Source of the DNA: Caldilineaceae bacterium SB0662_bin_25
Lineage (GTDB): Bacteria; Chloroflexota; Anaerolineae; Caldilineales; Caldilineaceae
Assembly (NCBI GenBank): GCA_009840225.1
Contig: VXOE01000271.1
Location: 6,606-70,605, forward strand
DNA length: 64,000 bases
Direction: 5' to 3'
The notes below the pieces were generated by a model. That model did no database searches, was not told where the DNA came from, and saw only the letters and a program-made list of their open reading frames with translations. Below, one piece after another: positions 39,845 to 64,000 of this stretch (position 1 is the first letter of the stretch; every line of letters starts with the position of its first letter). A program made the position numbers and the translations under genes.

Positions 39845-39866
39845 TTGACCTTGTGGAGGTATCGTG

Positions 39867-41222: not shown

Positions 41223-41229
41223 AGACGGT

Positions 41230-45334: not shown

Positions 45335-46333
45335 ATGCTCGAGCATATTTCAAAGATACTTGCTACTGAAAAACTATTGGACTATCTCGCCAGCGGCATT
45401 GGGGCGACTGCCGGCCCTATCTTTCGTCCTTGGCAGGCATACATGGAGGGTCATGCGAAACGCATTTCCGCCCGGGCTGATGCCGATGCTTTGGCGATCA
45501 TTGCGGAGGCTCAAGCCGATGCACGTCAGTATTTGATCGCGCCGGGTGCAGATGTACAAGGGGCGGTAGAAATCACCCACGAAAACATCATGCAGCGAAT
45601 CGAATTCCAGGAGAGGAAGCGTCTCGCCAATATCAGGTCGGTCGTGGAGAGTGCTGCGGAAGAACTGGGCGAAAAGGAAGTAGTCGATCACGAACCGGAT
45701 CATGATTGGACCGCGCGCTTCTTCGACTGTGTGCAGGACGTATCGTCTGAGCATATGCAGAAGCTATGGGCTAAAGTCCTATCCGGGGAAGTCGAAAGCC
45801 CTGGGCGGACCTCGCTCCGAACTCTGGATACCCTCCGAAACATGACGAAAAGAGATGCCGAGCTTTTCGATGAATTCGCCGGCTACGTTATTGGAGGCAA
45901 GTTTGTGTTCAACGACGATCATTTTGTGCAACGCCTCGGCGCTATGAAACCCAAATACCTACTGCACCTTCAGGATTGCGGTTTGGTAATCATTGCACCG
46001 TTTTTGAGGTGGACTGGAACATTCGGGGATGGGGAGAGATCGTTTTTTCTCTATCAGGGTGGCGCTCTGCTGATCGAGAAAGAGAAAGGCGCTTCAGATA
46101 AGTTGGAGATTCCCATAGTCTCGCTCACAGCCGCTGGCAAAGAACTTTTCCAGATTGTCCAAGGGTCAGTACAAAAGGCTTACTTACAAGACTTCGCTAC
46201 CTTTCTTCAAAATAGGGGCTGCCAATTGTATCTCGTCGATGAAGTAGTAAATTTGCCTGAAGGCGGGTTTAACTACACCAGTTGCGAGTTAATTGAGCCA
46301 AGACCCATACAATCAGGAATGCCGACCTTATGA
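45335..46333 (+). CDS. DUF2806-like protein
   Basis: DWTARFFDCVQDVSSEHMQKLWAKVLSGEVESPGRTSLRTLDTLRNMTKRDAELFDEF matches my recollection of the DUF2806 core. Its stop overlaps the methylase ATG (ATGA at 46330-46333). Confidence 0.55.
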   Translation: MLEHISKILATEKLLDYLASGIGATAGPIFRPWQAYMEGHAKRISARADADALAIIAEAQADARQYLIAPGADVQGAVEITHENIMQRIEFQERKRLANIRSVVESAAEELGEKEVVDHEPDHDWTARFFDCVQDVSSEHMQKLWAKVLSGEVESPGRTSLRTLDTLRNMTKRDAELFDEFAGYVIGGKFVFNDDHFVQRLGAMKPKYLLHLQDCGLVIIAPFLRWTGTFGDGERSFFLYQGGALLIEKEKGASDKLEIPIVSLTAAGKELFQIVQGSVQKAYLQDFATFLQNRGCQLYLVDEVVNLPEGGFNYTSCELIEPRPIQSGMPTL

Positions 46334-49300
46334 CAGACAAACGCCTGATTGAAGTTGAATTTCCGCTTAAGCAGACCTCGCTCGACTCTGTGCACGAGAA
46401 AAACGTGCGGCATGGGCACATTTCCACGCTGCATATCTGGCCGGCGCGTAGGCCGCTGGCCGCTTCGCGGGCGGCGCTGATTGCGACGCTGCTGCCGGAC
46501 TCTGGCAACGCGGAGAAGCGCAAGGAGATTCTGGAGCGGATGGCCGGCCGTGTCGTGGAAAAGATCGAGCGGCGGCGGGTCAACGGGCGTCAAGTTGAGA
46601 AGGTGAAGGAGGAGACGGTCGGCGGCATTCTTCACTGGGGGCGGGAGAACGGGCCGGACCTGCAGTGGTTCCGCGATGAGATTCGTAAGGCCTACGGGGG
46701 CCGTGCACCCAAGGTTCTGGACCCGTTTGCAGGGGGCGGCGCGATCCCGCTTGAGGCGATGCGTTTGGGCTGCGAAGTTACGGCCATGGACATCAACCCG
46801 GTCGCCTGGTTCATCCTCAAGTGCACGCTTGAATATCCGCAAAAGCTGGCCGGGCAGACGCGGCCGCTGCCGGAGTTTGCGCTGCACGACGGCGAGTTCA
46901 TGGAGGCGTTTCTCAAGAGTAAGGAGTTCAAAGGCGCGTCACTGCGAACGATGCTGGAGCGGCTCGGGCATGGGAAGGGTGAGACGCAGTTAAATTACCT
47001 GAGCCAGGAGGATCCGATCCTCGAGGCCGATCTGGCGTGGCAGGTGCGGGCCTGGGGGCGATGGGTGCTGGCCAGGGCGCGCAAGGAGCTAGCATCCTAC
47101 TACCCGACCTACGCCGAATTCGTGCCGCTGGGGTCCGATAGCGAAGATGATGACCCGCCTCCTATACAGCTGTTGGAGGTCGATGCAGATGGTGTAGCGC
47201 AAATCGATCCGCTCAACGCCGAATATGACGATGACTACCTGCGCGACCCGCGAAACCCGCGCTGGATCGCCAAGCCGACGGTTGCCTACCTGTGGGCGCG
47301 TACTGTGATTTGCAAGCAGTGCCGCGCTACGTTGCCCCTGCTCAAGACACGCTGGCTGTGCAAGAAGGAGCGCAAGCGGGTGCTGCTGACGATGGAGCCG
47401 GACGCCGACGGAACCGGTGTCGTCTTTGGGGTGGAGCCGGATGTGCCGCGCGTCGGCGGCAACGCGGCGCAGCGCCGGGAGCATGACAGGCGCGCCGGCG
47501 CGGGCACAATGTCGCGTGCCGGCGCTACCTGTCCCTGCTGTGGCGTCATCATGACGATGGAGGATATCCGCCTGGAGGGGCGAGCGGGGCGGCTGGACGC
47601 GGTGATGACAGCGGTTGTGGTCAACGGACCAAAAGGAAAAGAGTACCGACTTCCGACCGAGAACGAGCGCACGGTGGCAGAGGTGTCAGAGCGCGAACTG
47701 CAAACGCTTTACGCTGACATTCCCTTCGGGCTGCCGGAAGAACCCACTCCCAAAGCCGGAAGCGGGGCGTCGCGAGCATTTTCTGTGGACGGCTATGGTT
47801 TTGACACGTGGCGCAAGCTGTTTACAAACCGGCAACTCCTGGCACTTGGCGAGTTCGTTAGTGCCTTGCGTGACATGCCGAAGGAACTCGACGGCTATCC
47901 CACCGATTGGGCAGAGTCTATTGTGGCCATGTGCGCCCCCATAATCAGCCGTATGGCAGACCGAGGAAGTACGCTGGCTACATGGACAAATAACCCCGAA
48001 AAAATAAGAAGCACCTTTGCGCGGTTTGCATTGCCGATTACATGGGACTTTTCGGAGTTTGCCCCGCTATCCGATACCACAGGAGGGTTTGTTCAATCGA
48101 TAGATTGGGTTTTTAAGGTCTGTGAACATCTGCAACAGAGCGTTGAAACGGCTAGCTGCGGGAATAGTATCTGCGAGTCAGCAGTGTCCTGCCCGGTCAA
48201 CGCCGTTGACCTGATTCTAACTGACCCTCCATACTACGATGCGATTCCATATTCCGACTTGATGGATTTTTTCTATGTCTGGCTGAAGCGTTCTCTTCAG
48301 GGGCTGTCTCCCGAAATTGAGCATACCTTTTCCAGAAGTCTCGGACCAAAGTGGGATCACAACTCTAATGATGGCGAGCTGATAGACGACGCCAGCCGGT
48401 TTGGTGGTGACAGAGAACGGTCGAAACAAAACTACGAAGATGGCATGGCACGCACTTTCCGTTCTTGTCATTCTGCGTTGAAGGGCGACGGTCTGCTTGT
48501 AATCGTTTTCGCAAACAAACAGCCGGATGCCTGGGAAACTTTGGTTGCTGCCCTGATTCGAGCCGGTTTTGTCGTTGACGGGTCGTGGCCAATACAAACA
48601 GAGATGGGGAACCGGAATCGAGCCATTGCTTCCGCCGCCCTGTCGTCGTCAGTATGGATAGTCTGCAGGAAGCGACCTCCCTCCCGCCCCGGCTGGGACA
48701 GCAGCGTGCTGCAGGAGATGCGGGAGAACATAACCCAGCAGTTGCGCGACTTTTGGGACGCCGGCATACGCGGGCCGGACTTCGTGTGGGCGGCGACGGG
48801 GCCGGCGCTGGAGGCGTTCAGCAAGTACCCGGCGGTCAAGAAGGCAAACGACCCTGACAAACTGATGAGCGTATCCGAGTTTCTGCGCGAGGTGCGGCGC
48901 ATGGTCGTCGACTTCGTGGTCGGCCGCGTGCTGTCCCAGGACGGCGAGGAGGTGGTGACGGGGCTGGACGACGTCACCACCTACTACCTGCTGCATCGCA
49001 ACGACTTCGGCATGGACGACGCGCCGGTCGGCGGCTGCATCCTCTACGCGCTCTCCTGCAACCTTTCCGACGCGGCGCTGGTGAACCAGCATGACTTGCT
49101 GGCGAAAGGCAAAAAGCGCGGCGCCGGCGAAGCGGTTGAGCAGGAGGGCAGCGAGGAGGAAGGCGGCGGGGGCGGCGCCAAGGTCAAGCTGAAGCCATGG
49201 AACCGGCGCACGGGACGCAATCTGGGAGTTGAAGGCCCGGGCGGGCGGCCTGTACCTCTGATAGACCAGGTGCACAAGCTGATGCAGCTCTGGCGCGGCG

Positions 49301-49500
49301 GCGACCAGGGCAAGGTGAACAGTTACATTGATGAACGCGGGCTGCAGCGCAACGCGCTGTTTGTGCAGATCCTGCAGGCCTTGATCGAGCTGGCTGATGC
49401 CGGCTCCGGGGAACGCTCGATCCTGGAGGCGCTCAGCAATCATGTTAAGAATCGAGAGCGTGTGAGGCCGACGCGCCAGGGCCAGTTTGTTTTAGAATAG
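46330..49500 (+). CDS. DUF1156-family DNA methyltransferase (amino-MTase with Zn-ribbon)
   Basis: DUF1156 N-terminus LIEVEFPLKQTSLDSVHEKNVRHGHISTLHIWPARRPLAASRAALIATLL. SAM motif I LDPFAGGGAIPLEAMRLG, Cys4 (CKQC...CPCC), motif IV LTDPPYYD. Confidence 0.9.
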   Translation: MTDKRLIEVEFPLKQTSLDSVHEKNVRHGHISTLHIWPARRPLAASRAALIATLLPDSGNAEKRKEILERMAGRVVEKIERRRVNGRQVEKVKEETVGGILHWGRENGPDLQWFRDEIRKAYGGRAPKVLDPFAGGGAIPLEAMRLGCEVTAMDINPVAWFILKCTLEYPQKLAGQTRPLPEFALHDGEFMEAFLKSKEFKGASLRTMLERLGHGKGETQLNYLSQEDPILEADLAWQVRAWGRWVLARARKELASYYPTYAEFVPLGSDSEDDDPPPIQLLEVDADGVAQIDPLNAEYDDDYLRDPRNPRWIAKPTVAYLWARTVICKQCRATLPLLKTRWLCKKERKRVLLTMEPDADGTGVVFGVEPDVPRVGGNAAQRREHDRRAGAGTMSRAGATCPCCGVIMTMEDIRLEGRAGRLDAVMTAVVVNGPKGKEYRLPTENERTVAEVSERELQTLYADIPFGLPEEPTPKAGSGASRAFSVDGYGFDTWRKLFTNRQLLALGEFVSALRDMPKELDGYPTDWAESIVAMCAPIISRMADRGSTLATWTNNPEKIRSTFARFALPITWDFSEFAPLSDTTGGFVQSIDWVFKVCEHLQQSVETASCGNSICESAVSCPVNAVDLILTDPPYYDAIPYSDLMDFFYVWLKRSLQGLSPEIEHTFSRSLGPKWDHNSNDGELIDDASRFGGDRERSKQNYEDGMARTFRSCHSALKGDGLLVIVFANKQPDAWETLVAALIRAGFVVDGSWPIQTEMGNRNRAIASAALSSSVWIVCRKRPPSRPGWDSSVLQEMRENITQQLRDFWDAGIRGPDFVWAATGPALEAFSKYPAVKKANDPDKLMSVSEFLREVRRMVVDFVVGRVLSQDGEEVVTGLDDVTTYYLLHRNDFGMDDAPVGGCILYALSCNLSDAALVNQHDLLAKGKKRGAGEAVEQEGSEEEGGGGGAKVKLKPWNRRTGRNLGVEGPGGRPVPLIDQVHKLMQLWRGGDQGKVNSYIDERGLQRNALFVQILQALIELADAGSGERSILEALSNHVKNRERVRPTRQGQFVLE

Positions 49501-49578
49501 ATCCGCCATTACTTCTGGGCGTTCACAGCAGACGGGATGTGGGCCCTGTCCTACCATGTAGCAAATAAGGACTGCAAG

Positions 49579-50859
49579 ATGGCCAAGATTCAGGGGTTCA
49601 GAGTAAGGAATTTCAAGGTGCTCAAGGATGTGACCCTGGGCCGCCTGTGGGATCAACGCGAAGGCCAGCCGCTCACTGATTTGACGGCGGTCATCGGCAA
49701 GAACGGGGTCGGCAAGAGTGCCCTGTTCGATGCGTTCGGTTTCCTGGCCGATGCTCTGAACTCCGGCGTGGAAGTGGCCTGCGATGCGCGCGGGCGCGGC
49801 GGCTTCGAGAGGATAAGGTCTCAAGGAGAAACCGGGCCAATCGAATTTGATGTCTATTACAAAGAGAATCGGAACGCCCGGCCGATTACCTACGAAGTTG
49901 CTATCGATGCGGACGGCTCCGGACGCCCCTACGTGGTGCGGGAACGGCTCAGGCAGAGACGAAAGGGGCAGAAATACGGTCGGCCGTTTTCGTTTCTGAT
50001 GATCAATGACGGCAAGGGATGGGCATGGAAAGGAGAAGAGGACGGGTATGAGATTGACGAAAGCAAGGAGTGGAGAGACATAAATGCATTGATCCTGTTT
50101 TTCGCGAGAGAGGAATCGAGCGAGACCGAGATCATTGAATTGGAGGACCGTCGCAGGCTCGGCATTGCCACGCTGGGCGCCTTGAAACAGCACCCGCGCA
50201 TTTCCGCTTTCCGCCGCTTCATAGAGGGATGGTATCTCAGCTACTTCACGCCGGACGCGGCGCGCAGCCTGCCGCTGGCCGGGCCCCAGCCGCATCTCAA
50301 CATCCACGGGGACAACCTCGGCAACGTCGTCCAGTTCATGGAGCGCGAGCATCCACAGCGCTTTGAGACGATTCTTGAGGGTATTGCCGGGAAGATACCC
50401 GGCATTGACCGGATCGATACCGAAAAGACAAGCGACGGGCGCCTGCTGCTCCGTTTCAACGACAGAGGCTTTGAAGACCCTTTCTATGCCCAGCAGATGT
50501 CGGACGGGACGCTGAAGGTCTTTGCTTATCTGTTACTGCTCGAGGACCCGACGCCGCCTCCGTTCCTTTGTATTGAAGAGCCTGAGAACGGTCTGTATCA
50601 CAAGCTGCTGGAGACGCTGGTCGACGAGTTTCGCGCGCACGCCAGCGGGCCCGGAGGTGGTTCGCAGATCTTCGTCACGACACATCAGCCTTATCTTGTG
50701 GACGCGCTCAACCCGGAGGAGGTCTGGATTCTGGAGAAGGGGACGGACGGTTTTTCGACGATCCGCCGGGCCAGCGACGATCCTCTCGTCAAGAACCTGG
50801 TTGCGGAGGGGTTGCCGCTGGGTGGCCTCTGGTACAGCGACTATCTTGACGCGAGGTGA
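49579..50859 (+). CDS. AAA_15/AAA_21-type ABC ATPase
   Basis: Walker A AVIGKNGVGKSALFDAF, QMSDGT, Walker B FLCIEEPENGLYH, H-loop FVTTHQPYL. Start chosen at MAKIQGF. Confidence 0.85.
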   Translation: MAKIQGFRVRNFKVLKDVTLGRLWDQREGQPLTDLTAVIGKNGVGKSALFDAFGFLADALNSGVEVACDARGRGGFERIRSQGETGPIEFDVYYKENRNARPITYEVAIDADGSGRPYVVRERLRQRRKGQKYGRPFSFLMINDGKGWAWKGEEDGYEIDESKEWRDINALILFFAREESSETEIIELEDRRRLGIATLGALKQHPRISAFRRFIEGWYLSYFTPDAARSLPLAGPQPHLNIHGDNLGNVVQFMEREHPQRFETILEGIAGKIPGIDRIDTEKTSDGRLLLRFNDRGFEDPFYAQQMSDGTLKVFAYLLLLEDPTPPPFLCIEEPENGLYHKLLETLVDEFRAHASGPGGGSQIFVTTHQPYLVDALNPEEVWILEKGTDGFSTIRRASDDPLVKNLVAEGLPLGGLWYSDYLDAR

Positions 50860-50863
50860 GCTG

Positions 50864-51514
50864 ATGCATTTTGAGATCCTCGTTGAAGACCAGTCCGGCA
50901 AGAGGGCGCTTGACGTTCTGATCCCGAAGATCATCGGCGCGCAGGATACATTCAAGGTGAGGGGCTACAAAGGAATTGGCCGCATTCCCAAAGACCTTAG
51001 ACCCAGGACCCAGGCCAATAGACGCATTTTGCTCGACCAGCTTCCCAAGTTGCTCAGGGGGTTTGGGCAGACATTCGTCAATTATCCCGCCAACTATCCG
51101 GCAGTGTTGTTTGTGGTCTGTGACCTGGATGACAAATGTCTGAAGAGATTTCGGCAGGAGCTTTTCTCAGTCCTCCATGCGTGCAATCCTAGACCGGACA
51201 CCCGCTTCTGTATTGCCATCGAAGAGGGCGAGGCCTGGCTGCTCGGTGACATACCCGCGATCAAGGCAGCGTATCCGCAGGCCAAGGATTCTGTTTTGAA
51301 CGGTTACGTCAATGATTCGATATGCGGTACATGGGAGGTCCTGGCGGACGCCGTGTTCCCGGGCGGCTCCAAGGCGCTGGCGGGAGGGGGATGGCAAGCG
51401 GTGGGCAGGGAGAAGTCGATATGGGCGACGAAAATCGCCCCGCTAATGGACGTGGAGAACAACGCATCCCCCAGTTTCCAGTACTTTCGGGGGAAGATGC
51501 GGGCGTTGATTTGA
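50864..51514 (+). CDS. DUF4276-like Toprim-type protein
   Basis: MHFEILVEDQSGKRALDVLIPKI (Toprim-like Glu) and VLFVVCDLDDKC (DxD). Starts 5 nt after the ATPase stop. Confidence 0.65.
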   Translation: MHFEILVEDQSGKRALDVLIPKIIGAQDTFKVRGYKGIGRIPKDLRPRTQANRRILLDQLPKLLRGFGQTFVNYPANYPAVLFVVCDLDDKCLKRFRQELFSVLHACNPRPDTRFCIAIEEGEAWLLGDIPAIKAAYPQAKDSVLNGYVNDSICGTWEVLADAVFPGGSKALAGGGWQAVGREKSIWATKIAPLMDVENNASPSFQYFRGKMRALI

Positions 51515-51557
51515 GAGTCGATGCTGAAACCATATTCCGGATAGCGACCGGCGAGAC

Positions 51558-51643
51558 AACTGCTTTTTTCCACGGAGGACACGGAGGGACACGGAGAACT
51601 GCTTTTTTGTCCGCGGAGGGACGCGGAGAGGCGCGGAGAACAC
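51558..51643. repeat. Tandem ACGGAG-rich intergenic repeat (2 units)
   Basis: aactgcttttttccacggaggacacggagggacacggagaactgcttttttgtccgcggagggacgcggagaggcgcggagaac. Related copies lie at 55183-55278. Confidence 0.6.
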
Positions 51644-51812
51644 CAAGGGCGTATCGATTTTTTTGTGCGCAGCCGTTCGCAGAGTAAGCGCACTTTGCCC
51701 GCGTAATTCGCTGTTCGGACAAAGGTCAATGAGGTCCGGACAAATCCCAGATGACGATGGGCCTGCCCCCCAGGCCGTTACAGAAGACTCAATTGCGTGC
51801 AAAGAGGACAAA

Positions 51813-54800
51813 ATGAGCAAGAAACGTACCTGGACACCCTGGCACGAGGTCGTAAGCCTGCGCGATGATCTGAAGAGCGGCGAGCTGTCGCTGGCCGTCT
51901 TCGCCGCCGACCTGTATGACGTGTTGCTGCAAAAAGGGCAGCGGAAAGTTTACGAGGACCCGGCCGAGTTCTTCGCCCTGACCTACCCGACGTTGAACCT
52001 GCGCGAGCTGGCGCGGGACGTGGCGATGCGCCTGGCGGGCCGCAGCGACAAGGCCTATCGCAAACTGTCGGTCACCTACGGCGGCGGCAAGACGCACACG
52101 TTGATCACCCTTCGCCACCTTGTCCACGCCCCTTCCGCGCTGCCGGACCTGCCGGCCGTGCGTGACTTCAAGGCGCATATCGACTTTCGGTTGCCGCACG
52201 CGCGGGTGGCCGCGCTCTGTTTCGACAAGATCGACTTGGAACTGGGCGTGGAGACGCCCGCGCCGGACGGGTCCACCAGGATGCTCAGGCATCCCTGGAG
52301 CGTTCTCGCTTACCAGCTGGCCGGAGCCGACGGGTTGCGCATGATCAGTGCCAGTGGAGAGGATGAGGAGCGAGACACGCCGCCGGCGGAACCCCTGCTC
52401 GTTGGGCTGTTATCGAAGCCGCAGGAGGAAGGACTTTCCACGCTTGTGCTCCTGGACGAAGCGTTGATGTATCTGCGGGTGCAGGTCGAGACCGATCAGT
52501 CGGCGCGCGGGCGCATGGTCGCCTTCTTTCAGTACCTGACGCAGGCGGTCGTCAAGGTGGGCCGCTGCGCGATGGTGGCCTCGTTGCTCGCTTCCGACCC
52601 GGGCAAGCATGATGAATTGGGGAATGAGATCCTGCGCCAGGTGTCTGAGGTCTTCGGGCGCCAGGAGGAGGAGGACGCCAGCCCGGTGAGCAGGGAGGAT
52701 GTGTCCGAGGTATTGCGGCGGCGCTTCTTCAAACCGGAGTCGATCAGTGACCCGGGTCGATTCAGTCCGCACGTTACATCGGTCGTGAACAGCCTGGCTG
52801 CGCTCGATCCACAGACGAAGAAGGAGCGTAAGGCGACCGAGGACAGATATCTCAGAAGCTATCCCTTTCACCCTGATCTCACCGAGATCTTCTACAGCCG
52901 CTGGACCCAGATGGATGGATTCCAGCGGACGCGCGGCATCCTGCGCACCTTTGCGATCGCGCTGCGGGACGCGGAGAAGTGGGATACCAACCCCCTGGTA
53001 GGGCCAAACGTTTTTCTGAGCAGACCGGGAGATGGGGAACTGGCCGAAGCGACCAGCGACCTGGCCGCCATCGCAACCTCCGAAGCAAGCGCCGGCGGCC
53101 ACCAGGCGTGGCGGCCGATCCTCGAAGGCGAACTGGACAAAGCGCGCACAGTTCAAGCCGACGCGAGCGGCCTGAACGGTCGAGAGTTAGAACAGGCGGT
53201 CATTTCGGTCTTTCTCAGCTCTCAACCGGTCGGACAGAAGGCGCAAACGCGGGCGTTGCTGCTGCTGCTGGGCACGGCGAGGCCTGACAAGATCGAGTTG
53301 GAGAAGGCGCTGGTGGGCTGGACCTATCTATCCTGGTTTCTGGATGAGGTGGAGATGGGCCCAACTCGAGGGGACGGCGTGGATGATTTGCCCAAGGCCT
53401 GGCGGCTGGGGAACCGTCCCAATTTGCGCCAGATGCACGACGACGCGTGCCGGAACCGGGTTCCGCCCCAGCTGGTCGAATCCCAGCTCGTCGAGGCGAT
53501 ACGCAAAGAGAGATCTCTGACGGGCGGCGCGGCCGCGGCGGGCGCGCGGGTGCATACACTGCCGCAGGCGCCCAGGGACGTGCAGGACGACGGCGAGTTT
53601 CATTTTGCCGTCCTCGGCCCTGGATCCGCTTCGGAATCCGGCAAGCCGAGCGCGGAGGCGATACGCTTCATCGAGGAGACGACTGCGGCGGACCGCCCGC
53701 GCGTCAATCGCAATGCAATTGTCCTTGCCGTTCCCTCCAAAGATGGACTTGAGAGCGCCCGAGATCGCATTCGGCACCACCTTGGCTGGCAGGAGGTCGG
53801 GACGCAGCTCAAGGACCAGCCAATTGATCCGATCCGTGAGCAGATGCTTGTCGCGGAGACGCGTGCGGCCGGCGAGCGCATTTCTGAGGGCATCAGGCAG
53901 GCCTATTCGATCGTTGTCACCGTCAACGAGGCCAATGAGGTGCACGCTTTCCGGATCGCGGCGACCGGCGACCCGCTCTTCACGACCATCAAAGCCGACC
54001 GGCGCGCCCGCATCCAGGAGACCGAGATCAGTGCGGAGGCGATGATGCCGAACGGCCCCTATGACCTGTGGCGCGAGGGCGAGCAGGAACGCCGGGTGAA
54101 GGACCTGGTCGGCGCATTCGCCCAGTTCGCCAAACTGCCGAAGATGCTGCGCCACAGAGAGATTCTGGGTACGATTGTCCAGGGAATCGAGAGCGGAATC
54201 TGGGTAGGGCGCACGATGCGGCCGGACCGGACGTACAAGAGCCACTGGCGTACACGGGTCGATGACAGCGTGTTGAAGGATACGAGTCTGGAGGTCTGTC
54301 TGCCGGAGTCGGCTACGCTCAGCGACCTTAATCCGAAGCTGCTTGCGTACGGTGTGCTCCCGGAGCTCTGGCAGGGCGATGAGATCAGCGTGCAGTCCGT
54401 GTATGACTATTTCGCGGGCGAACGTGCGGTGCAGGTGCCGAAGGATGGGTACGAGGATACGTTTTTCATTCCGGCGTGCGGGCCGGACCAGGTCAGTGAG
54501 GCAGTTTCGCAGGCGGTCGCACAGGGGTCGATCTGGATGACCAACGGGCCCGCTTCGATCCTGGGCGAGCCGATCCCCGCCGGGGTACTTACGCCGGCGG
54601 CCGTGCTGAGATCGCCGCCGGACCAGATTGGGGTGGGCGAGTTGATGGCTGAAGAGATTGCGGATGCATGGCAGGACGGAAAGAGCAATGCGCTGGCCAT
54701 CATGACCGCCATCTCGGCCAAGCGGGGAGTGAATCTGCCGTGGAGCGCGGTGCGATCCGCGATCGGGGAAGGGATTCGCGCGCAGTGGCTGGAGCTGTCT

Positions 54801-55136
54801 GAAGGGAGCGCCCCCCTGGATACGGATCTGTCGGGTGCTCAGGGTGTTCTGCTGCAGACGCCGGCGGCCAAGCCTGGCGGGGTCCGGGACGGCAGGGATG
54901 ATTACCGGGAGGGGGTGGTGACGGCCGAGGCGACGTTGGAGGGGTATGGGATACAGGACCTGGGAGAGTTGATTCCGGAGATTCTTGAAGCTGCGGCCGG
55001 GGATCCGATCGTGTTCAAGGTTCGGATTGAGTTTGGCGGTGAAAAGGAGCCTGACGGGGAGAAGGTGGAGAGGATAAACGGTTTGCTTTCTGAGGCGCTG
55101 GAGGAGTTGCGGTTGGGTGGGGGCGGGTTGCGGTGA
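51813..55136 (+). CDS. DUF499-family P-loop ATPase
   Basis: Characteristic N-terminus TPWHEVVSLRDDLKSGELSLAVFAADLYDV...YEDPAEFFALTYPT, P-loop YGGGKTHTLITLRHL, Walker B LVLLDEALMY. The 667-aa antisense ORF over it is a GC shadow. Confidence 0.85.
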   Translation: MSKKRTWTPWHEVVSLRDDLKSGELSLAVFAADLYDVLLQKGQRKVYEDPAEFFALTYPTLNLRELARDVAMRLAGRSDKAYRKLSVTYGGGKTHTLITLRHLVHAPSALPDLPAVRDFKAHIDFRLPHARVAALCFDKIDLELGVETPAPDGSTRMLRHPWSVLAYQLAGADGLRMISASGEDEERDTPPAEPLLVGLLSKPQEEGLSTLVLLDEALMYLRVQVETDQSARGRMVAFFQYLTQAVVKVGRCAMVASLLASDPGKHDELGNEILRQVSEVFGRQEEEDASPVSREDVSEVLRRRFFKPESISDPGRFSPHVTSVVNSLAALDPQTKKERKATEDRYLRSYPFHPDLTEIFYSRWTQMDGFQRTRGILRTFAIALRDAEKWDTNPLVGPNVFLSRPGDGELAEATSDLAAIATSEASAGGHQAWRPILEGELDKARTVQADASGLNGRELEQAVISVFLSSQPVGQKAQTRALLLLLGTARPDKIELEKALVGWTYLSWFLDEVEMGPTRGDGVDDLPKAWRLGNRPNLRQMHDDACRNRVPPQLVESQLVEAIRKERSLTGGAAAAGARVHTLPQAPRDVQDDGEFHFAVLGPGSASESGKPSAEAIRFIEETTAADRPRVNRNAIVLAVPSKDGLESARDRIRHHLGWQEVGTQLKDQPIDPIREQMLVAETRAAGERISEGIRQAYSIVVTVNEANEVHAFRIAATGDPLFTTIKADRRARIQETEISAEAMMPNGPYDLWREGEQERRVKDLVGAFAQFAKLPKMLRHREILGTIVQGIESGIWVGRTMRPDRTYKSHWRTRVDDSVLKDTSLEVCLPESATLSDLNPKLLAYGVLPELWQGDEISVQSVYDYFAGERAVQVPKDGYEDTFFIPACGPDQVSEAVSQAVAQGSIWMTNGPASILGEPIPAGVLTPAAVLRSPPDQIGVGELMAEEIADAWQDGKSNALAIMTAISAKRGVNLPWSAVRSAIGEGIRAQWLELSEGSAPLDTDLSGAQGVLLQTPAAKPGGVRDGRDDYREGVVTAEATLEGYGIQDLGELIPEILEAAAGDPIVFKVRIEFGGEKEPDGEKVERINGLLSEALEELRLGGGGLR

Positions 55137-55182: not shown

Positions 55183-55278
55183 GATCCACGAAGGGGCGCG
55201 GAGAACTGCTTTTGATCCACGGAGGGACACGGAGAACGGCTTAACTGCTTTTGATCCGCGAAGAGGCGCGAAGGAACG
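55183..55278. repeat. Tandem ACGGAG-rich intergenic repeat (2 units)
   Basis: gatccacgaaggggcgcggagaactgcttttgatccacggagggacacggagaacggcttaactgcttttgatccgcgaagaggcgcgaaggaac. Same orientation as 51558-51643. Confidence 0.6.
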
Positions 55279-55483
55279 GGGAAAGCGTCTTTTCTGTTTT
55301 GGCAGGGTCGATTAGAGTCCGTATTTGTCACATTTTGAATGGCTTTCGCCCAATGTCAACGAACCTTAATATGTCAACCAGACAGTCGATGGATCGAAGG
55401 AATCCGGCCGGTGCTGGCCAGCCTGCTCTTGCACGCTACGCACACCGATACCCAGCCGCGGCCCGACTAGGTCGGCGAATCAT

Positions 55484-55645
55484 GGCTTTTCCTTTTTTGA
55501 CGCATTGGAGACCAGCGACAAAGCGGCGAAGTTTCTGTGGGAGATCGCTCGTGAGCTTGTTGATGCCGTTCGGCGGAGTGTCACGATTGATTGGGCGCAC
55601 CAAGAGAGCGTGCGAGTCTTCCTTCGGTCTGGATTTGTAGACGAC
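55484..55645 (+). pseudogene. C-terminal remnant of a type I restriction R subunit (HsdR, DUF3387-like)
   Basis: [48 protein letters not shown] matches the conserved HsdR C-terminal pattern (LAFYDAL...iA.eLv..vr....iDW..re.vrA.lR), from memory. No upstream helicase part is present. Confidence 0.45.
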
Positions 55646-55855
55646 GTTGACCGCACGATCGGGCGTGAAAATGGAATGAACTCAAACGAAGTGAGGCGGT
55701 TGATGTGGTCGAATCTCCGTCTGTTGGTTACGACTACCGAATGTTCTGAAGTGTTTCCGCATGCAGCAAGAGTTATCCTTGCCGCCACCTCTTGATATAC
55801 AACACCTTGTGGTGTCTATGGTGGGTCCCTGTAACCAGACCAACGGCAGGGAGGG

Positions 55856-58800
55856 CTAAGAGTTTTCAGCCAATATCCTCTTTAATGGCCAGAATGCATT
55901 CCCACCTACATCAACCAATTTATTGATTAAGGTAGCCGTTTCTTCCTTCGTCGTATGATTGGCGTATAGAATTTCGAATGCTTCAATCCAGCCATCACTA
56001 GAATCCCAAAGGAACAACGTCTGTGGATTCTTGACCCGTGCTCCCCCTTCAAACAGATACAGATCGGCAATCTCAAGCGTATCTTCGGGCGCTGCTTGCG
56101 CAAGCAGGGGACTGACTTTGTCAAGTTCATGTTGCCAATTCAAGACCCCGTTGGTCTTTTCAAGGGTTTGTTTTACACGCTGTACAAGCCAGGCAGGTTC
56201 GAAAATACCGCTGTCAAGATTGATCCAAAGACCTAACTCCATGAGTATTTCCGGCTCTGTGACTCTCTCGATCAGCCAATCCCAGAGTTCCCTCAGTTTT
56301 CTCTTGCTTTCCGGATTGTTTGTAAAAAACTTCTCCGCTTTATTCCAAGAGATGAAATAACGCCCAAGAAAACTGACAAAGTGCGTGTGTTGTTTGAGAT
56401 TGTTGGTTTCCCAAAACGCCTTTAACAGTTGATGATCTAACTCGAACTCTTTGTAGCGCATAAACGCAAACGCTAGGTGCTCCGCAATGCCTTCATTGGG
56501 TTCCTTGGAATGCCTTTGCCCACGAGGATAGTCACTATTTCCGATCTCCAGTGCTCGTTGGTAGAGGTTTTGGATTTCGGGATCAGAAATAATATCACCG
56601 TCTAGATTATTGGTAAGATACCCCTCCCATGCTGCGGTATAGAGCCATTTCTTCACTGCATCCTGGGGAAAGATTTGCGGCAAAAGCGTTCGAATCCAAC
56701 CCTTGTCTCGAAAGTAAAATTGGGGAAGGAAACGTCCGTACATCGACATGAGGGCGCGTGTGTTCTCTCTCTCCAATACTTTTTCGTACAGTTCCTTGGC
56801 ATCTCTTCTGATCATTTTGCCATCTTGCTCGACAAACAAAGTAAACACTTCGAAGGCTCTACCACGCACAGTGTCGACAGCCATGCGGAGCGGATCTGTC
56901 GCCCACTTACCGTCAGCGTCATCGTGCATCGCTCTGAGGTCTAGGGCGTTACTAGGTGTCTCGAATTGTTCATCTTCGGGTAATGGTTCAGGATATGAAA
57001 GGAGGTAGCTAATAATCCTGAAAATCCGGTCACGACATTTGCCCAATTCAAGCAACGCCTTCCCATCCTGTTCTGTCAACAGAGCCCGCAGAACGTCCGT
57101 TGCAACCAAGTGAACAGCATCCCAGTTAGCAAGCCAAGAATCAAACCAATTAGGCTCTCTTCTTCCGCGTTCAAATGGGACTTGCTCTCCAGATTTCTTG
57201 ATCGCAATAAGAAGGTCAATTACTCCATCCCAATTTTCCTCAAGGGCCGTACTGCGGTGCTTTTGAATCGTCTCCTCGATTCCGATGAGATATAAGTAAG
57301 TGTAATAATGATCAAGAACATCTCTCTCGAAGAATAGTTCGGCGTTCTCGATGTACTCTGGCAACCGCCTTGGCATGTCGTCTCTCATCTGTTCGCCAAT
57401 ACCCCTCGCATTGACAGGATTGTACCTGTCTCTCTCTGTATTGTGTGCGTATAGTTCTTCAAGAGTCCATTCATTGCGAAGTTTTCCTGCTATCTCTGCG
57501 ACAGGTCGACTCCCGAAATCTTCCAGTGGATCTAAACCACGAGATTGTATTTCCCTGAACTCGTCATCTACGCGTATGACTGGTCTTGGTTCATGGTTTG
57601 GATCAAGCTCAAAACCTGTTGCTTCTGCTTGCTCTTTCAGCTGGGGATTCCCATTGAGAAATGGAAGAATCGTGGAAAGTATATGTGAGCCATCACATCT
57701 CCTATCTTCAGGCAACTGGCTGAATTCTTGGATGGTTTTCTGCACGAAATCTTGCTTTTCGTCTTCGGATAACACGGAAAATCCCTTTTGCAAGGCTTTT
57801 TCGTATTCAGACCCAGAGGTAATATCGTAATATCGTTCAACCTCAAATAGTCGAAAAAAGGCTGCCTTGAGTTCCTTCGTGAAAATTTCGGGTAGCAAAC
57901 TCCATGTGTAAAGCTTTAGCCGCCAGATGACTCGGCTGTCGGGAAGAGGTACAATATGGTTTTCGTAAACCCTTCTAGCCTGTTTTGATTCAACACATTC
58001 TCCACCAAAAATCCGATCAAGTAACGTTTTTAAGACAGCCACCAATTTCCGCACGTCACTTTGAAACGAATTGGGATCCATCTGGCCCAATTCAAAGTCA
58101 AAGAAATCCACGTCTGAAAATGAGTACCTATCGGTAGCCGCAAACACTGACGCGTTAATCTGCTTAGATCGCATTGACTGCATTAGAGCATCCCATTCAG
58201 ATTCAGGCAGGCCTCTTCGTCTCGAGTCCTGTTCACCCAAGGCAACGACTTCAGCCATTACCCCTGTTACTAGGGCAAGCGCCTCTTCCGCGTATGTACC
58301 CTCTATAGCAGCTAGATGCTCGAAGATTTCAGTATGTGAGAGGTAATCAAAGAAGAAAGGGGTGTCGCTGTAACGAGACGATTTTCCTATTTCTTCCTCT
58401 GTGCGTACGATCAACACGGTCTTAGCGAGTACCAGAAAGTTCTTGTAGTCCTTGGCAGTGACGAGTGTTTTGCACATTTTAGAGTATTCGAAACCCGTCT
58501 GTTCAGCTGGACCATCCATCAACGCTGGCCACTTCTCTTTGTGAATTTTCTTCACTACTCGCGCCAATTGGTGTGCCGGCAGGGACTGGCAAATTCTCAA
58601 GAAGTAGTAGAGGAGCGTCTGATTTGACACATTCGGGAAAACCGGGATCTTAAGCAATATGTTTACCACATTTGCCGGACATTTCCCTCCCATGCGCACA
58701 AGATAATGCAGTTCCGGAATTCTGATGCTGTCGGGTCTTGAGTCTTCCTCAGATTCACTTGTGATACTCAAAAATCCATTCTTCCAGAGCCAACCTAGCC

Positions 58801-59464
58801 ACCATTCGTCTGCTTTTGCGAAGAAGTACTGGCGAGCATCTAGATTGACGCCCAGAATCAATTTTAAGTCCTCTTTCATTCCCTTACTGCGCCCTTTCTT
58901 TTTCTGAACAATGCTATCAATAATCGTGTGTACATAGATCTGTTGTAATTTCAACGCGCTCCCCAATACACGGACGTAATTTTCCATCAGTTTTTCAAAG
59001 TCAGAGTCCCCGAAAGCTGCGAACTCTTTAGGTGTGAACGCTTTTAGATTTGCTCCAAGGTGGGTCAAGTCCGAAAGTTTCTTGTAGATCTCATCCAGAG
59101 TTCCGAAAGTATCCATAAATCTAGGATCACTTATCTTGCCTCCAGCATGTGATCCTGTAGCGTACTTCCTAAACAACCTCATCAGATTTGCCTCGCTTAT
59201 CTCTTTGCTAAAGAGAGGGTAAAGAATGTCTCGGGCTGATCCCGCAGCTTGGCTCATCCATACCGGGTTGGCTCTGCCCTCTGGCCTCATCACATGGAAG
59301 ACACCCATCAGCAAATCTGATGTGTCACGCCCCTGATGCTTTTTGGGATATTCACGAAAAAACTGGTCAATCCTTTTGCATAAGTCTTGTACTTCAGGAC
59401 TTAGCAAGAGTGGAGACAGAGAGCCTGGATGATTCGCGGAACTTCTGGATTGGTTGTCCGTCAT
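55856..59464 (-). CDS. Orphan 1202-aa protein, no recognisable domain
   Basis: Uninterrupted 3.6-kb ORF, visibly more AT-rich than its flanks, apparently monocistronic. Composition suggests a mostly alpha-helical protein. No P-loop, nuclease, HEPN or TIR motifs found by eye. Confidence 0.75.
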   Translation of the reverse strand: MTDNQSRSSANHPGSLSPLLLSPEVQDLCKRIDQFFREYPKKHQGRDTSDLLMGVFHVMRPEGRANPVWMSQAAGSARDILYPLFSKEISEANLMRLFRKYATGSHAGGKISDPRFMDTFGTLDEIYKKLSDLTHLGANLKAFTPKEFAAFGDSDFEKLMENYVRVLGSALKLQQIYVHTIIDSIVQKKKGRSKGMKEDLKLILGVNLDARQYFFAKADEWWLGWLWKNGFLSITSESEEDSRPDSIRIPELHYLVRMGGKCPANVVNILLKIPVFPNVSNQTLLYYFLRICQSLPAHQLARVVKKIHKEKWPALMDGPAEQTGFEYSKMCKTLVTAKDYKNFLVLAKTVLIVRTEEEIGKSSRYSDTPFFFDYLSHTEIFEHLAAIEGTYAEEALALVTGVMAEVVALGEQDSRRRGLPESEWDALMQSMRSKQINASVFAATDRYSFSDVDFFDFELGQMDPNSFQSDVRKLVAVLKTLLDRIFGGECVESKQARRVYENHIVPLPDSRVIWRLKLYTWSLLPEIFTKELKAAFFRLFEVERYYDITSGSEYEKALQKGFSVLSEDEKQDFVQKTIQEFSQLPEDRRCDGSHILSTILPFLNGNPQLKEQAEATGFELDPNHEPRPVIRVDDEFREIQSRGLDPLEDFGSRPVAEIAGKLRNEWTLEELYAHNTERDRYNPVNARGIGEQMRDDMPRRLPEYIENAELFFERDVLDHYYTYLYLIGIEETIQKHRSTALEENWDGVIDLLIAIKKSGEQVPFERGRREPNWFDSWLANWDAVHLVATDVLRALLTEQDGKALLELGKCRDRIFRIISYLLSYPEPLPEDEQFETPSNALDLRAMHDDADGKWATDPLRMAVDTVRGRAFEVFTLFVEQDGKMIRRDAKELYEKVLERENTRALMSMYGRFLPQFYFRDKGWIRTLLPQIFPQDAVKKWLYTAAWEGYLTNNLDGDIISDPEIQNLYQRALEIGNSDYPRGQRHSKEPNEGIAEHLAFAFMRYKEFELDHQLLKAFWETNNLKQHTHFVSFLGRYFISWNKAEKFFTNNPESKRKLRELWDWLIERVTEPEILMELGLWINLDSGIFEPAWLVQRVKQTLEKTNGVLNWQHELDKVSPLLAQAAPEDTLEIADLYLFEGGARVKNPQTLFLWDSSDGWIEAFEILYANHTTKEETATLINKLVDVGGNAFWPLKRILAENS

Positions 59465-60613
59465 AATTAACTCCTATTGACAATTTCAGGATGTTTCTAC
59501 CGGGAAGTTATCACGATAGTGACTTCTGTGCCGGTTAGACCGCATAGATTATACACGACTGTTCAATCCCTACGGCAGATTCATTGGCGTGTACATACAC
59601 TAGACGCTGCATACTGCTCCGACTCCGGCGTTTAGGATGAGACCGACAAACGCGTGAGCAAATCCCCAAACACCAGGAATTTTGGATATCTCCAAGGATT
59701 GCGTCAGAGATTGGCCGATAGACAGGATGCGTCAAAGGCAGACGGCAACACAGCCACCGGCGTTCGTGCAGAGCCCCTGAGGAAGCAGGATTCTACTGTC
59801 GGGCCGAAGGGTGCCACCATGCTTACAGCTAACAGTTCAAACAAAGAAAGGAAGAGAACATAACGGCCGCTTGCCTGAGAAGGATCTGACAGATTTCGCG
59901 GAGGGCGGTGCTGGGCAGGAAGACTGCCCGATGGTTCACAATGGCGGAAGTGAGAGGTTAGAAGTAGAAGTAGCAAGTAAGAATGGGAAGAGAGATTCGC
60001 GATCCGCGGCGGCTGGCGCCGCTGTGGCGAGATTGTCCACGGATGCTGTTGGGTCAGGGAACGAAGGAGCAGCGCCGGCGCGTAAGAGAGAGCCGGTTCC
60101 GGAACGGAAGTGCTGCGAATGCGGCGGAGAGATACCGCCGGAGAAGGCGGATACGCGTGACGAGTGCCGCGATTGCTATTATGCGCGGGTGCGGCTAGAG
60201 GAGAAGGAGCGCAGGGCGGGAGAGGATGGGCAGAGACGGCGCGGCTTCCTGGAAGGGCGGAACCGGGGCAGGCCGCAACGCGGTCTGTTCAACAGAGACA
60301 AGCCGACTGGCCCGCTGCCGGCCGGGGGCGCAGGTAGTGGGCCGTTATCAGGTGGCGAGGGAGATGCATCAGGAGACGGCTGAGAATGCGTGGGTTCGAG
60401 CAGGGGAGCACCCTTACAGAGCAGGCAGCCTGATCGCGCACGTGGTTACCGGTGAGCTGGAAGTGCGGGCGGCGGCCGAGCGGCCCGGCACGGAATCATC
60501 TTGACAGCAAGGATATACTGAATCACTCATTTACAGGGTGAGACAAGACGTTGATGGGGCGTACTATCACCTTGTGACGCTTTGGCGAGAGACGAAAGAG
60601 GAACGGAGATTAG

Positions 60614-62512: not shown

Positions 62513-64000
62513 TTATCCTGGCCGTCTCCTCTGTTGCCGTAAGAGGGCCCCTACTATCGTAATCTCATAGTAGGAGTAGTCGTCGCCGAGCAGCTCCTTG
62601 ACCTGAGACAGGGGGCTACCGCCTGCGGCTCTGAAGGCCCTCCTGATCTCTTCAATCCTCTCAGCCGGCGGCAGCATTGGCCTCAGGTCAATGTCCATTC
62701 CGCCCTCTATGAGGCGTTCCAGATGACCGGCTATGGTGCTCATCTCGAGGTTCCGTTCTTTCGCTATCTGTTCAACAGACAGGCCTTGTTCCAGCATCTG
62801 TCTGGTCGTTTCGTAGGTCGCTCCCCTTCGCTCCCTTCTTTGTCTTCTGCTTCTTCGTGCAACGGGGATGCTGCGCTCCGTCAAGCCGTGCCGGCGCGCG
62901 TAGCTGCCGATCACGGTAATGAATGCATCGCCCATCTCCTTCAGTTTCTTTCCTTTCATACCGGAAATGCGGGAAAGACTCCTGCGATTCTGGGGAAGGT
63001 AGTGCGCCATCTGCTGGAGCGCGGCATCATCAATTATCACGTTGGGCGGGATGTCTCTCTCCGCGGCCAACCGGCGGCGCAAGCCGCGCAACTCCTCAAA
63101 CAGTCCTTGATCGAAGTCGAGGACCGTGCGGCCGGCGGCCGGCACTTTCCTCCCCTCAGGTACGGATCGTGTGAGAACCAGCCTTGTGCGGCTCTTTAGA
63201 AAGCGCCTGCCTGTATGCGTGACAGACAGAGTCGAGGATTCTCCTTCGTCCCTGTCAAGCAATCCCTTTGCAACCAACTGACCGGCAATCTCCTTTATCT
63301 CATCTACGGAGTAGCTGTTGACAGCGCCATAGACGCTGAGTTCATCGTGCCCCAGCCTTTTCACTATCGGATTCCCGGAACCCCGCAGCACGGCAGCGAC
63401 GTGGGTGATGCCGAAGCGCTCTCCCGTGTGAATGACGACCGAGAGGATCCGGTGCGCGATCGCGGTGGCGTCGAACTCCTCTTTGGCCGGCCGGCATACG
63501 TCGCAGCCGCCGCAGTTCCCCTCCGGCCACTCTTCGCCGAAGTAGCGCAGCAGGTATCTTCGCCGGCAGGCCTGCATCTGGCAGTACTCGATGACCTGGC
63601 CCAGCTTCTTATATGCGTCGCGGCGTATCACTTTATCCTCGATCTCATTTATGAAGCGTTCCAGTATCGGCACGTCGTCGTAGGAGAAGAAGAGGACACA
63701 GTCGCTGGGCAGCCCGTCGCGGCCGGCGCGGCCTGTCTCCTGGTAGTAGCCCTCAAGCGTCTTGGTCAGGTCATAGTGGACGATCAGCCGGACGTTCGAC
63801 TTGTCGATGCCCATTCCGAACGCGATCGTGGCAACGATGATCGGGGTCCGGTTTTGCATGAAGTGCTCCTGGGTCTGATTCCGCTCGTCATCTTCCATCC
63901 CGGCGTGGTAGTGCAGTGCGTCGAAACCGTTGTTACGCAACTGAGAGGCCAGATCCTCGGTATCCTTGCGGGTGGTGCGGTAGATGATGACGGGTTCGGC
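62513..64000 (-). CDS. recQ: ATP-dependent DNA helicase RecQ (partial; N-terminus beyond the window end)
   Basis: Helicase C motifs IVATIAFGMGIDKSNVRLIVHYD and YYQETGRAGRDG, Zn/RQC region CRRRYLLRYFGE...CGGCDVC, HRDC-like LRGLRRRLAAERDIPPNVIIDDAALQQMA. The frame stays open to 64000. Confidence 0.9.
   Translation of the reverse strand, partial: AEPVIIYRTTRKDTEDLASQLRNNGFDALHYHAGMEDDERNQTQEHFMQNRTPIIVATIAFGMGIDKSNVRLIVHYDLTKTLEGYYQETGRAGRDGLPSDCVLFFSYDDVPILERFINEIEDKVIRRDAYKKLGQVIEYCQMQACRRRYLLRYFGEEWPEGNCGGCDVCRPAKEEFDATAIAHRILSVVIHTGERFGITHVAAVLRGSGNPIVKRLGHDELSVYGAVNSYSVDEIKEIAGQLVAKGLLDRDEGESSTLSVTHTGRRFLKSRTRLVLTRSVPEGRKVPAAGRTVLDFDQGLFEELRGLRRRLAAERDIPPNVIIDDAALQQMAHYLPQNRRSLSRISGMKGKKLKEMGDAFITVIGSYARRHGLTERSIPVARRSRRQRRERRGATYETTRQMLEQGLSVEQIAKERNLEMSTIAGHLERLIEGGMDIDLRPMLPPAERIEEIRRAFRAAGGSPLSQVKELLGDDYSYYEITIVGALLRQQRRRPG

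Follow-up and report, generated by a model that had tools for sequence, protein, structure and literature searches.

The window analysed here is a 64,000-nucleotide stretch of the genome of Caldilineaceae bacterium SB0662_bin_25, and the subject of this study is a gene towards its far end that encodes a protein of 1202 amino acids (aa) (Table 1). A preliminary description, made from the sequence without database searches, had presented this gene as an uninterrupted 3.6-kb open reading frame (ORF) of deviating base composition on the strand opposite to a DUF499 (HmaC-like) gene, monocistronic and free of classical NTPase or nuclease motifs, and on these points our analysis agrees with it. The ORF is complete and lies exactly as described, convergent with the DUF499 gene, which ends at 55136. 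The guanine-plus-cytosine (GC) content of the gene is 0.460 compared with 0.571 for the window; no other 3.6-kb stretch of the 64 kb is as low, the value being about 3 standard deviations under the mean. GC at third codon positions is 0.479 compared with 0.72-0.78 in native-looking neighbors. The organization is that of a single gene with its own upstream region, including a ribosome-binding site and a candidate promoter element, TGTATAAT, which falls within a segment conserved with a second contig (L005); a consensus scan for promoters and terminators around the gene gave results no better than shuffled sequence. The whole protein has no matches in Pfam, NCBIfam or PDB sequence searches. Walker A, DEAD/H and GxGxxG motifs are absent from it, and of its ten Rx4-6H matches and single HxH match none is conserved across the family. 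A protein of 100% identity (MXX27762.1/MYC22897.1) is encoded in the metagenome-assembled genome (MAG) of Caldilineaceae bacterium SB0668_bin_21.

The 1202-aa protein is built of two modules, an N-terminal helical module (N-module) and an alpha-solenoid core, which across the family are found fused, split and, in a few loci, with the first of them replaced. Family members fall into a long class of ~1150-1205 aa and a short class of ~980-1020 aa, the latter beginning right after the position that corresponds to residue ~190. At the short-class loci an upstream gene of ~170-190 aa abuts the core gene or overlaps it by a few bases, and its product is homologous to residues 1-186 of the query (blastp E=1e-18 and 2.5e-23). 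We called the architecture of 80 genome loci, the 80 best from a scan of one genome per species, with custom hidden Markov models (HMMs). The N-module is fused to the core in 18 of these and split into an abutting upstream gene in 44, while in five others, all from Caldilineaceae (L014, L015, L016, L019 and L028), the split N-module protein is ~200 aa longer. In L014:6810-7934, the only long split partner tested, the additional stretch is an FRG domain (PF08867, E=2e-16) that lies N-terminal to the N-module and corresponds to the PADLOC candidate PDC-S15. One locus has a divergent N-module detected by BLAST only. At 4-5 of the 80 loci the partner is instead an unrelated protein of ~205-240 aa with an N-terminal transmembrane helix (L034:7303-7920, L036, L050, L058), and at two it is a CHAT-type protease of ~350 aa (L055:470-1537 and L082:6866-7915), the L055 protein scoring 31.4 bits against a cutoff of 24 and the L082 protein, 37% identical to it, scoring 18.3 bits and thus under the cutoff. 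The CHAT or transmembrane partner loci come from a few Patescibacteria and show natural exchange, on one and the same sensor, of the partner that takes the effector position. The remaining loci have another small protein upstream (one), nothing upstream (one) or are ended by contig limits (three).

No third conserved gene accompanies the pair in the 80 genome loci, the commonest neighbor families being present in only 11-14 of them. A search in the reverse direction, in which 80 metagenome loci were retrieved purely by the N-module motif NPDWMSQAA, found the core fused in 52 and directly downstream in 18, which is every locus where the contig continues. Two further searches, started from N-module alignments, brought up nothing outside the family, their hits being fragments or members of the split form. 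The fused and split loci together with the reverse motif search indicate that the conserved unit is N-module plus core, fused or split. A 185-aa gene upstream of the family member P0009 was considered as a partner and rejected, as it is unrelated and part of a neighboring system.

The core is where the protein can be tied to a known defense system. An AlphaFold2 model of residues 4-1202, built on an alignment of 68 sequences, is confident and all-helical, with a mean predicted local distance difference test (pLDDT) score of 83.8 and a predicted template modeling (pTM) score of 0.64. Foldseek with the full model retrieved only generic HEAT/ARM solenoids (CAND1, importins and SF3B1; E=5e-5 to 1e-3, TM-score 0.13-0.25), and the structure search pointed to no clear unrelated function. 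According to the model the core has a HEAT/ARM alpha-solenoid fold, that is, an all-alpha repeat superhelix. The protein had been proposed earlier to be probably an alpha-solenoid, which stands for residues ~195-1202; it is not one uniform solenoid, since residues 1 to ~190 are a separable module with an invariant arginine and histidine. The PADLOC HMM for Dsr1 matches the core of the window protein directly and 15 of 32 diverse family members, with a best E-value of 9.6e-23. A tblastn search found a bridge in a 789-aa hypothetical protein of Legionella pneumophila conjugative plasmids, which matches query residues 811-1191 and in turn matches positions 469-1214 of PADLOC Dsr1 at E=8e-34. When the core profile was aligned to this Legionella Dsr1-like protein with hhalign, the probability was 99.4% (E=4.7e-21) over 574 columns reaching the C-terminal end. 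On these profile comparisons, homology to the Dsr1 sensor region extends over the C-terminal two-thirds of the core, and the protein is not unrelated to known systems. Profile searches of PDB sequences identified no solved structure for the core, the N-module, the whole family or the Dsr1-like bridge. The Legionella gene itself (L008:6708-9077, NZ_CP016871.1) does not have the first ~468 profile positions, which are the SIR2 part, and an IS3 transposase lies immediately 5' of it; because of this transposase the gene is probably a Dsr1 truncated by insertion of an insertion sequence.

The N-module modeled alone forms, with good confidence, a helical bundle (pLDDT 80.9, pTM 0.78). Across 62 diverse modules, including canonical, divergent, split and fused ones, R78 and H135 are the only invariant residues, and G54, A55, N66, A74, S76, E79 and H136 are conserved in at least 90%. 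Weak similarity to PF18165 (pP_pnuc_1) recurs, with 19 of the 62 modules matching at E<=0.1 (best E=1.4e-5) and any other Pfam family matching two at most. P0209 alone attains the gathering threshold, with 26.6 bits against 26.3 and over profile positions 10-40 of 133. The segment matched is the same in every case and holds the invariant arginine. PF18165 is a predicted pPIWI-associating nuclease family, its nuclease activity being itself a prediction only, and in contrast to it the present family has no association with Argonaute. A literature search found no paper mentioning PF18165 or pP_pnuc_1, and the 2013 pPIWI paper contains no description of the pP_pnuc_1 domain. Two family members, P0093 (1313 aa) and P0209 (1293 aa), have tandem N-modules ahead of the core with the arginine and histidine kept in both copies, and this duplication suggests that the N-module may act as a dimer. 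The small all-helical module with an invariant arginine and histidine, together with a tandem duplication suggestive of a dimeric active form, is reminiscent of HEPN RNase effectors. Unlike in HEPN domains, the two residues are on different helices, so that there is no conserved Rx4-6H motif, and a HEPN identity was rejected for that reason. The few HEPN structures among the Foldseek matches of the N-module had E-values around 1 or above and TM-scores of ~0.3, no better than generic bundles.

Table 1. Features of the window, beginning with the 1202-aa gene and its parts (a dot in the strand column denotes a segment without strand assignment).
Feature	Position	Strand	Details
Complete ORF	55856..59464	-	1202 aa plus stop codon, ATG start
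N-terminal helical module, putative effector	58895..59464	-	Residues 1 to ~190
Alpha-solenoid core, putative sensor	55859..58882	-	Residues ~195-1202
Part homologous to Dsr1 sensor region	55877..57883	-	Residues ~528-1196, hhalign
Direct PADLOC Dsr1 HMM match	56147..56821	-	Residues 882-1106, profile 928-1147 of 1227, E=1.1e-14
AGGAG ribosome-binding site	59471..59475	-	6 nt 5' of the ATG, direct sequence reading
TGTATAAT extended -10-like element	59548..59555	-	~90 nt 5' of the ATG; candidate own promoter, consensus only
Segment common to window and contig L005	55625..59603	.	blastn, 3,989 nt, 85.2% nucleotide identity
Chimeric gene remnant	55448..55795	+	HsdR C-terminal fragment plus last 56 codons of a TatD-like gene
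TIR-APAZ gene, then short prokaryotic Argonaute (pAgo) gene, SPARTA-like	39864-42735	+	PADLOC E=1e-65 and 2e-166
OLD/Gabija-like ATPase	43572-45299		Defense gene in window
HmaB-like DUF1156 methylase and HmaC-like DUF499 ATPase	46330-55136	+	
HEC-01A/HEC-01B pair	49537-51514		Embedded between the HmaB-like and HmaC-like genes
475-aa ORF at window end	62513-63940	-	C-terminal part of the 1,498-aa fusion, L172:2456-6952

The gene is located within a concentration of defense genes. Before it in the window there are SPARTA-like, OLD/Gabija-like, DUF2806, Hma and HEC-01 genes, and past it the contig continues with a small ribbon-helix-helix (RHH) protein, a single-stranded DNA-binding protein (SSB), a 281-aa protein and a 1,498-aa GmrSD-RecQ-type fusion before a housekeeping ZnuA gene is reached. 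Since the fusion precedes ZnuA, the gene lies inside the defense island and not at its distal edge, where it had been placed before. The suggestion that it is a likely immune sensor or effector gains from its position among SPARTA-like, OLD/Gabija-like, Hma, HEC-01 and GmrSD genes. The neighborhoods of homologs are likewise mostly restriction-modification (R-M), recombinase, integrase or prophage contexts. Relatives adjoin SNF2-PLD helicases with MmeI/Eco57I enzymes, type I R-M systems, integrases, a D5-type primase, a KAP NTPase and GmrSD with Vsr/Dcm, and those that recur from locus to locus comprise DNA methylases, Eco57I/MmeI enzymes, serine recombinases, SNF2-PLD and ResIII helicases and a SocA/Panacea antitoxin. 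As to the neighboring systems themselves, the 1,498-aa protein is an unusual type IV restriction-helicase fusion, in which GmrSD_N/GmrSD_C and HTH_40 are joined to a DEAD/RecQ-type helicase. The TIR-APAZ and short pAgo genes have a GC content of 0.48-0.53, below the window average, and for this reason appear to be another acquired segment. The DUF2806 gene is just upstream of the HmaB-like and HmaC-like genes, between which no HmaA-type helicase was seen. The intergenic region after the DUF499 gene contains a 31-nt direct repeat, AACTGCTTTTGATCCACGGAGGGACACGGAG, in two copies (81% identical, 39-nt spacing; 55204-55273).

Horizontal acquisition of the gene, already implied by its composition, is supported by its deviating GC content, by a similar segment in another context and by a patchy distribution across phyla. 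The segment shared with contig L005 comprises the gene with 139 nt of its upstream and 231 nt of its downstream flank, and the similarity ends there; the L005 contig has a different genomic context and its relative is 82% identical to the window protein. The 3' limit of this segment falls inside a chimeric HsdR/TatD-like remnant, of which residues 15-60 resemble the C-terminus of HsdR and residues 60-115 share 80% identity with the final 56 residues of a TatD-like gene that is intact in L005 and lies there convergent to the orthologue of the 1202-aa gene. The remnant looks, from its sequence, like a recombination scar that marks where the similarity to L005 ends on the 3' side. No convincing terminal repeats were found flanking the 4-kb segment, and there is no tRNA gene near the 1202-aa gene. 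In nearly all loci examined the family genes are lower in GC than their flanks. The ratio of nonsynonymous to synonymous substitution rates (dN/dS) between the window gene and its L005 orthologue is 0.21 overall and 0.19 in the N-module, with no 100-codon block above 0.41; thus the gene is maintained by purifying selection.

The protein had been called an orphan, which is wrong because the family is large. While an initial homology search yielded 68 relatives of 31-82% identity, exhaustive HMMER searches with a core-only profile, in which each count is a representative of a 50%-identity cluster, found 2,690 representatives at E<=1e-3 and 630 at E<=1e-30. None of the 80 best genome loci comes from a cultured organism, 79 being from MAGs and one from a single-cell genome, and some genomes have two copies of the family gene. 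About 41 of the loci belong to Patescibacteria, or candidate phyla radiation (CPR) bacteria, and 23 to Caldilineaceae, with the others from Nitrospirales, Poribacteria, Omnitrophota, Gammaproteobacteria, Verrucomicrobia, Aminicenantia and one Methanosarcinales archaeon. A tblastn search against 50,697 phage records gave no match. Certain family members do lie on contigs of phage or prophage-like character: two IMG/VR viral contigs (L169 and L170) have a family gene, and an 82-kb metagenome contig (L006, JGI 3300009538) with SU10-type capsid, adaptor and amidase genes carries one just 3' of a type I R-M system.

Dsr1 (defence-associated sirtuin 1) is a single-gene SIR2 protein that causes transient NAD+ depletion (Gao et al. 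2020; Garb et al. 2022). Its sensor is homologous to the sensor of the STAND protein Avs7 (Nature 2026;657:735, PMC13581612; preprint PMC12803255), and the phage major capsid protein was shown experimentally to trigger both EcDsr1 and SeAvs7 (PMC13581612, PMC12803255). The Avs7/Dsr1 sensor is present in 9,097 proteins with N-terminal NADase, nuclease, kinase, HEPN-like RNase, metallo-beta-lactamase (MBL), transmembrane or 'unknown' effectors (PMC13581612), and disruption of the N-terminal effectors of such proteins leads to loss of defense (PMC13581612, PMC12803255). The 1202-aa protein is like Dsr1 in being a single polypeptide of ~1200 aa in which a long alpha-helical repeat region comes after a small N-terminal module, in the homology of its C-terminal ~670 residues and in its defense-island location and horizontal mobility. 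Unlike Dsr1, it has no SIR2 match in Pfam even at E up to 1 and carries an unrelated helical bundle of ~190 aa instead, therefore NAD+ depletion is not expected. The family also differs in occurring as a two-gene operon of module gene and core gene, and in its nearly exclusive occurrence in uncultured Patescibacteria, Caldilineaceae, Nitrospirales and similar lineages. Its logic is that of the Avs7/Dsr1-sensor proteins, a repeat sensor with interchangeable N-terminal partners, and the variants here (helical module, FRG plus module, CHAT or a transmembrane protein) mirror the effector exchange of those proteins. Unlike Avs7, the 1202-aa protein has no STAND NTPase (no Walker A and no Pfam match), and the probable kinship of its core with Avs7 is traced through Dsr1. 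DSR2, which senses the phage tail tube protein by a HEAT-like C-terminal domain joined to SIR2, has a comparable architecture of N-terminal effector and alpha-solenoid. A relationship with it was rejected, as there is neither a PADLOC Dsr2 match nor a SIR2 domain, and the top 50 Foldseek matches include no DSR2 chain. The Dsr1/Avs7 sensor with an exchangeable N-terminal effector is an already published class of architecture. Judged against the text of PMC13581612, what is new here is the N-module, its fused, split and tandem forms, the size of the family and its restriction to uncultured lineages.

Taken as a whole, we favor the reading that the gene encodes a self-contained, two-module anti-phage pattern-recognition protein, with a Dsr1-type solenoid as sensor and the N-module as effector, and we put its probability at roughly 55%. 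We infer the defense function, the trigger and the biochemical activity of the N-module as follows. A conserved phage protein, by analogy most likely a structural protein of the capsid type, would bind the solenoid core. Binding would cause a conformational change or oligomerization that joins N-modules and switches them on, and the activated N-modules would then abort or block the infection. The N-module would most likely be a toxic enzyme with R78 and H135 at its center; it is possibly a nuclease or RNase of distant kinship to pP_pnuc_1 and would probably be active as a dimer. These parts are not equally secure. That the protein is a Dsr1-type defense sensor is, given the homology of the core, highly likely. 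A capsid protein as the trigger, which is drawn from the analogy with Dsr1 and Avs7, is tentative and falls somewhat short of an even chance, and an enzymatic effector role for the N-module, suggested by its conservation pattern, has an even chance at best. The most specific form of the proposal is that the N-module is a new kind of immune effector enzyme, with an Arg/His active site and a fold that has no structural neighbor, activated by dimerization on binding of a phage protein, and that it provides the main output of a defense family which is frequent in CPR bacteria and Caldilineaceae but missing from the cultured model organisms that usually yield new defense systems; we regard this form as unlikely.

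Several observations weigh against the favored reading, and the alternatives are best considered together with them. Identity to the sensor region of Dsr1 is only ~22%, so that the ligand of Dsr1 is not transferable with confidence, and the N-terminal third of the core (residues ~195-527) is outside the Dsr1 alignment. Both observations would suit a defense sensor for a cue other than capsid, such as another phage protein, a nucleic-acid structure or the perturbation of a host factor, with the analogy to Dsr1 and Avs7 being architectural only. The hosts, CPR bacteria and Chloroflexota, have poorly known phages, and alternative activators have been noted for other sensors (PMC13581612), both of which leave room for such a cue. 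Avs7 and Dsr1, the only two members tested and otherwise very different systems, share the major capsid protein as trigger class, which speaks against it, and we consider a non-capsid cue unlikely on balance.

Other observations concern the N-module, for which the main rival proposes that the core is a Dsr1-type sensor and that the module is an adaptor, lid or oligomerization subunit docked on the solenoid. The output would then come from a recruited host factor, from an extra domain such as FRG or from sequestration of the phage protein. The N-module is seen only with the present core whereas defense effectors are usually shared among many systems, and such exclusiveness would also suit an adaptor or regulatory subunit. 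It has no recognizable catalytic motif, including the Rx4-6H motif of HEPN domains, and Foldseek found no significant neighbor for it in PDB (best E ~0.8) or BFVD (best E ~0.4). The PF18165 match in relatives is limited to profile positions ~10-44 of 133 and the query's own N-module has no such match, therefore membership in PF18165 is not established. In the Caldilineaceae loci with the longer split partners, the FRG domain confirmed in L014 could be the real effector. Recruitment of a host factor has a precedent in Avs7, which recruits EF-Tu as a scaffold (PMC13581612). Against an adaptor, the N-module is the only non-sensor part in most loci, without a conserved third gene, and it sits in the position of the Dsr1 effector, where CHAT or transmembrane partner genes replace it in a few loci. 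An invariant arginine and histidine with near-invariant asparagine, serine and glutamate form a pattern more usual in active sites than on docking surfaces, and the recurrent weak similarity is to a predicted nuclease family. We hold an adaptor role to be rather improbable and retain the N-module as the putative effector.

It is very improbable that the protein is a non-immune HEAT/ARM scaffold with a cellular or mobile-element maintenance role in an incidental defense neighborhood, as the generic eukaryotic solenoid scaffolds among the Foldseek matches and the syntenic housekeeping neighbors (NTP-transferase/PGM, SpoIID, DUF3090 and an ABC transporter) of ~11 Caldilineaceae loci might suggest, given the homology of the core to the Dsr1 sensor region, the patchy occurrence over Patescibacteria, Chloroflexota, Nitrospirota, Proteobacteria and one archaeon, the movement of the low-GC gene as a single-gene segment, the methylases, restriction enzymes, recombinases and helicases that are its commonest non-syntenic neighbors, the CHAT and transmembrane partners in some loci and the double copies in some genomes.

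It is worth considering what a two-module sensor-effector protein of this kind would mean for the lineages that carry it. If the favored reading is true, it would extend the capsid-sensor principle of Dsr1 and Avs7 to a family of 2,690 representatives at 50% identity, and would add an effector module without known structure or activity. The natural fused, split and tandem forms, together with the CHAT and membrane partners, are a comparison set for how a sensor is coupled to its output. Tiny-genome Patescibacteria are among the hosts, and for them a defense gene of 3-3.6 kb would be a heavy investment.

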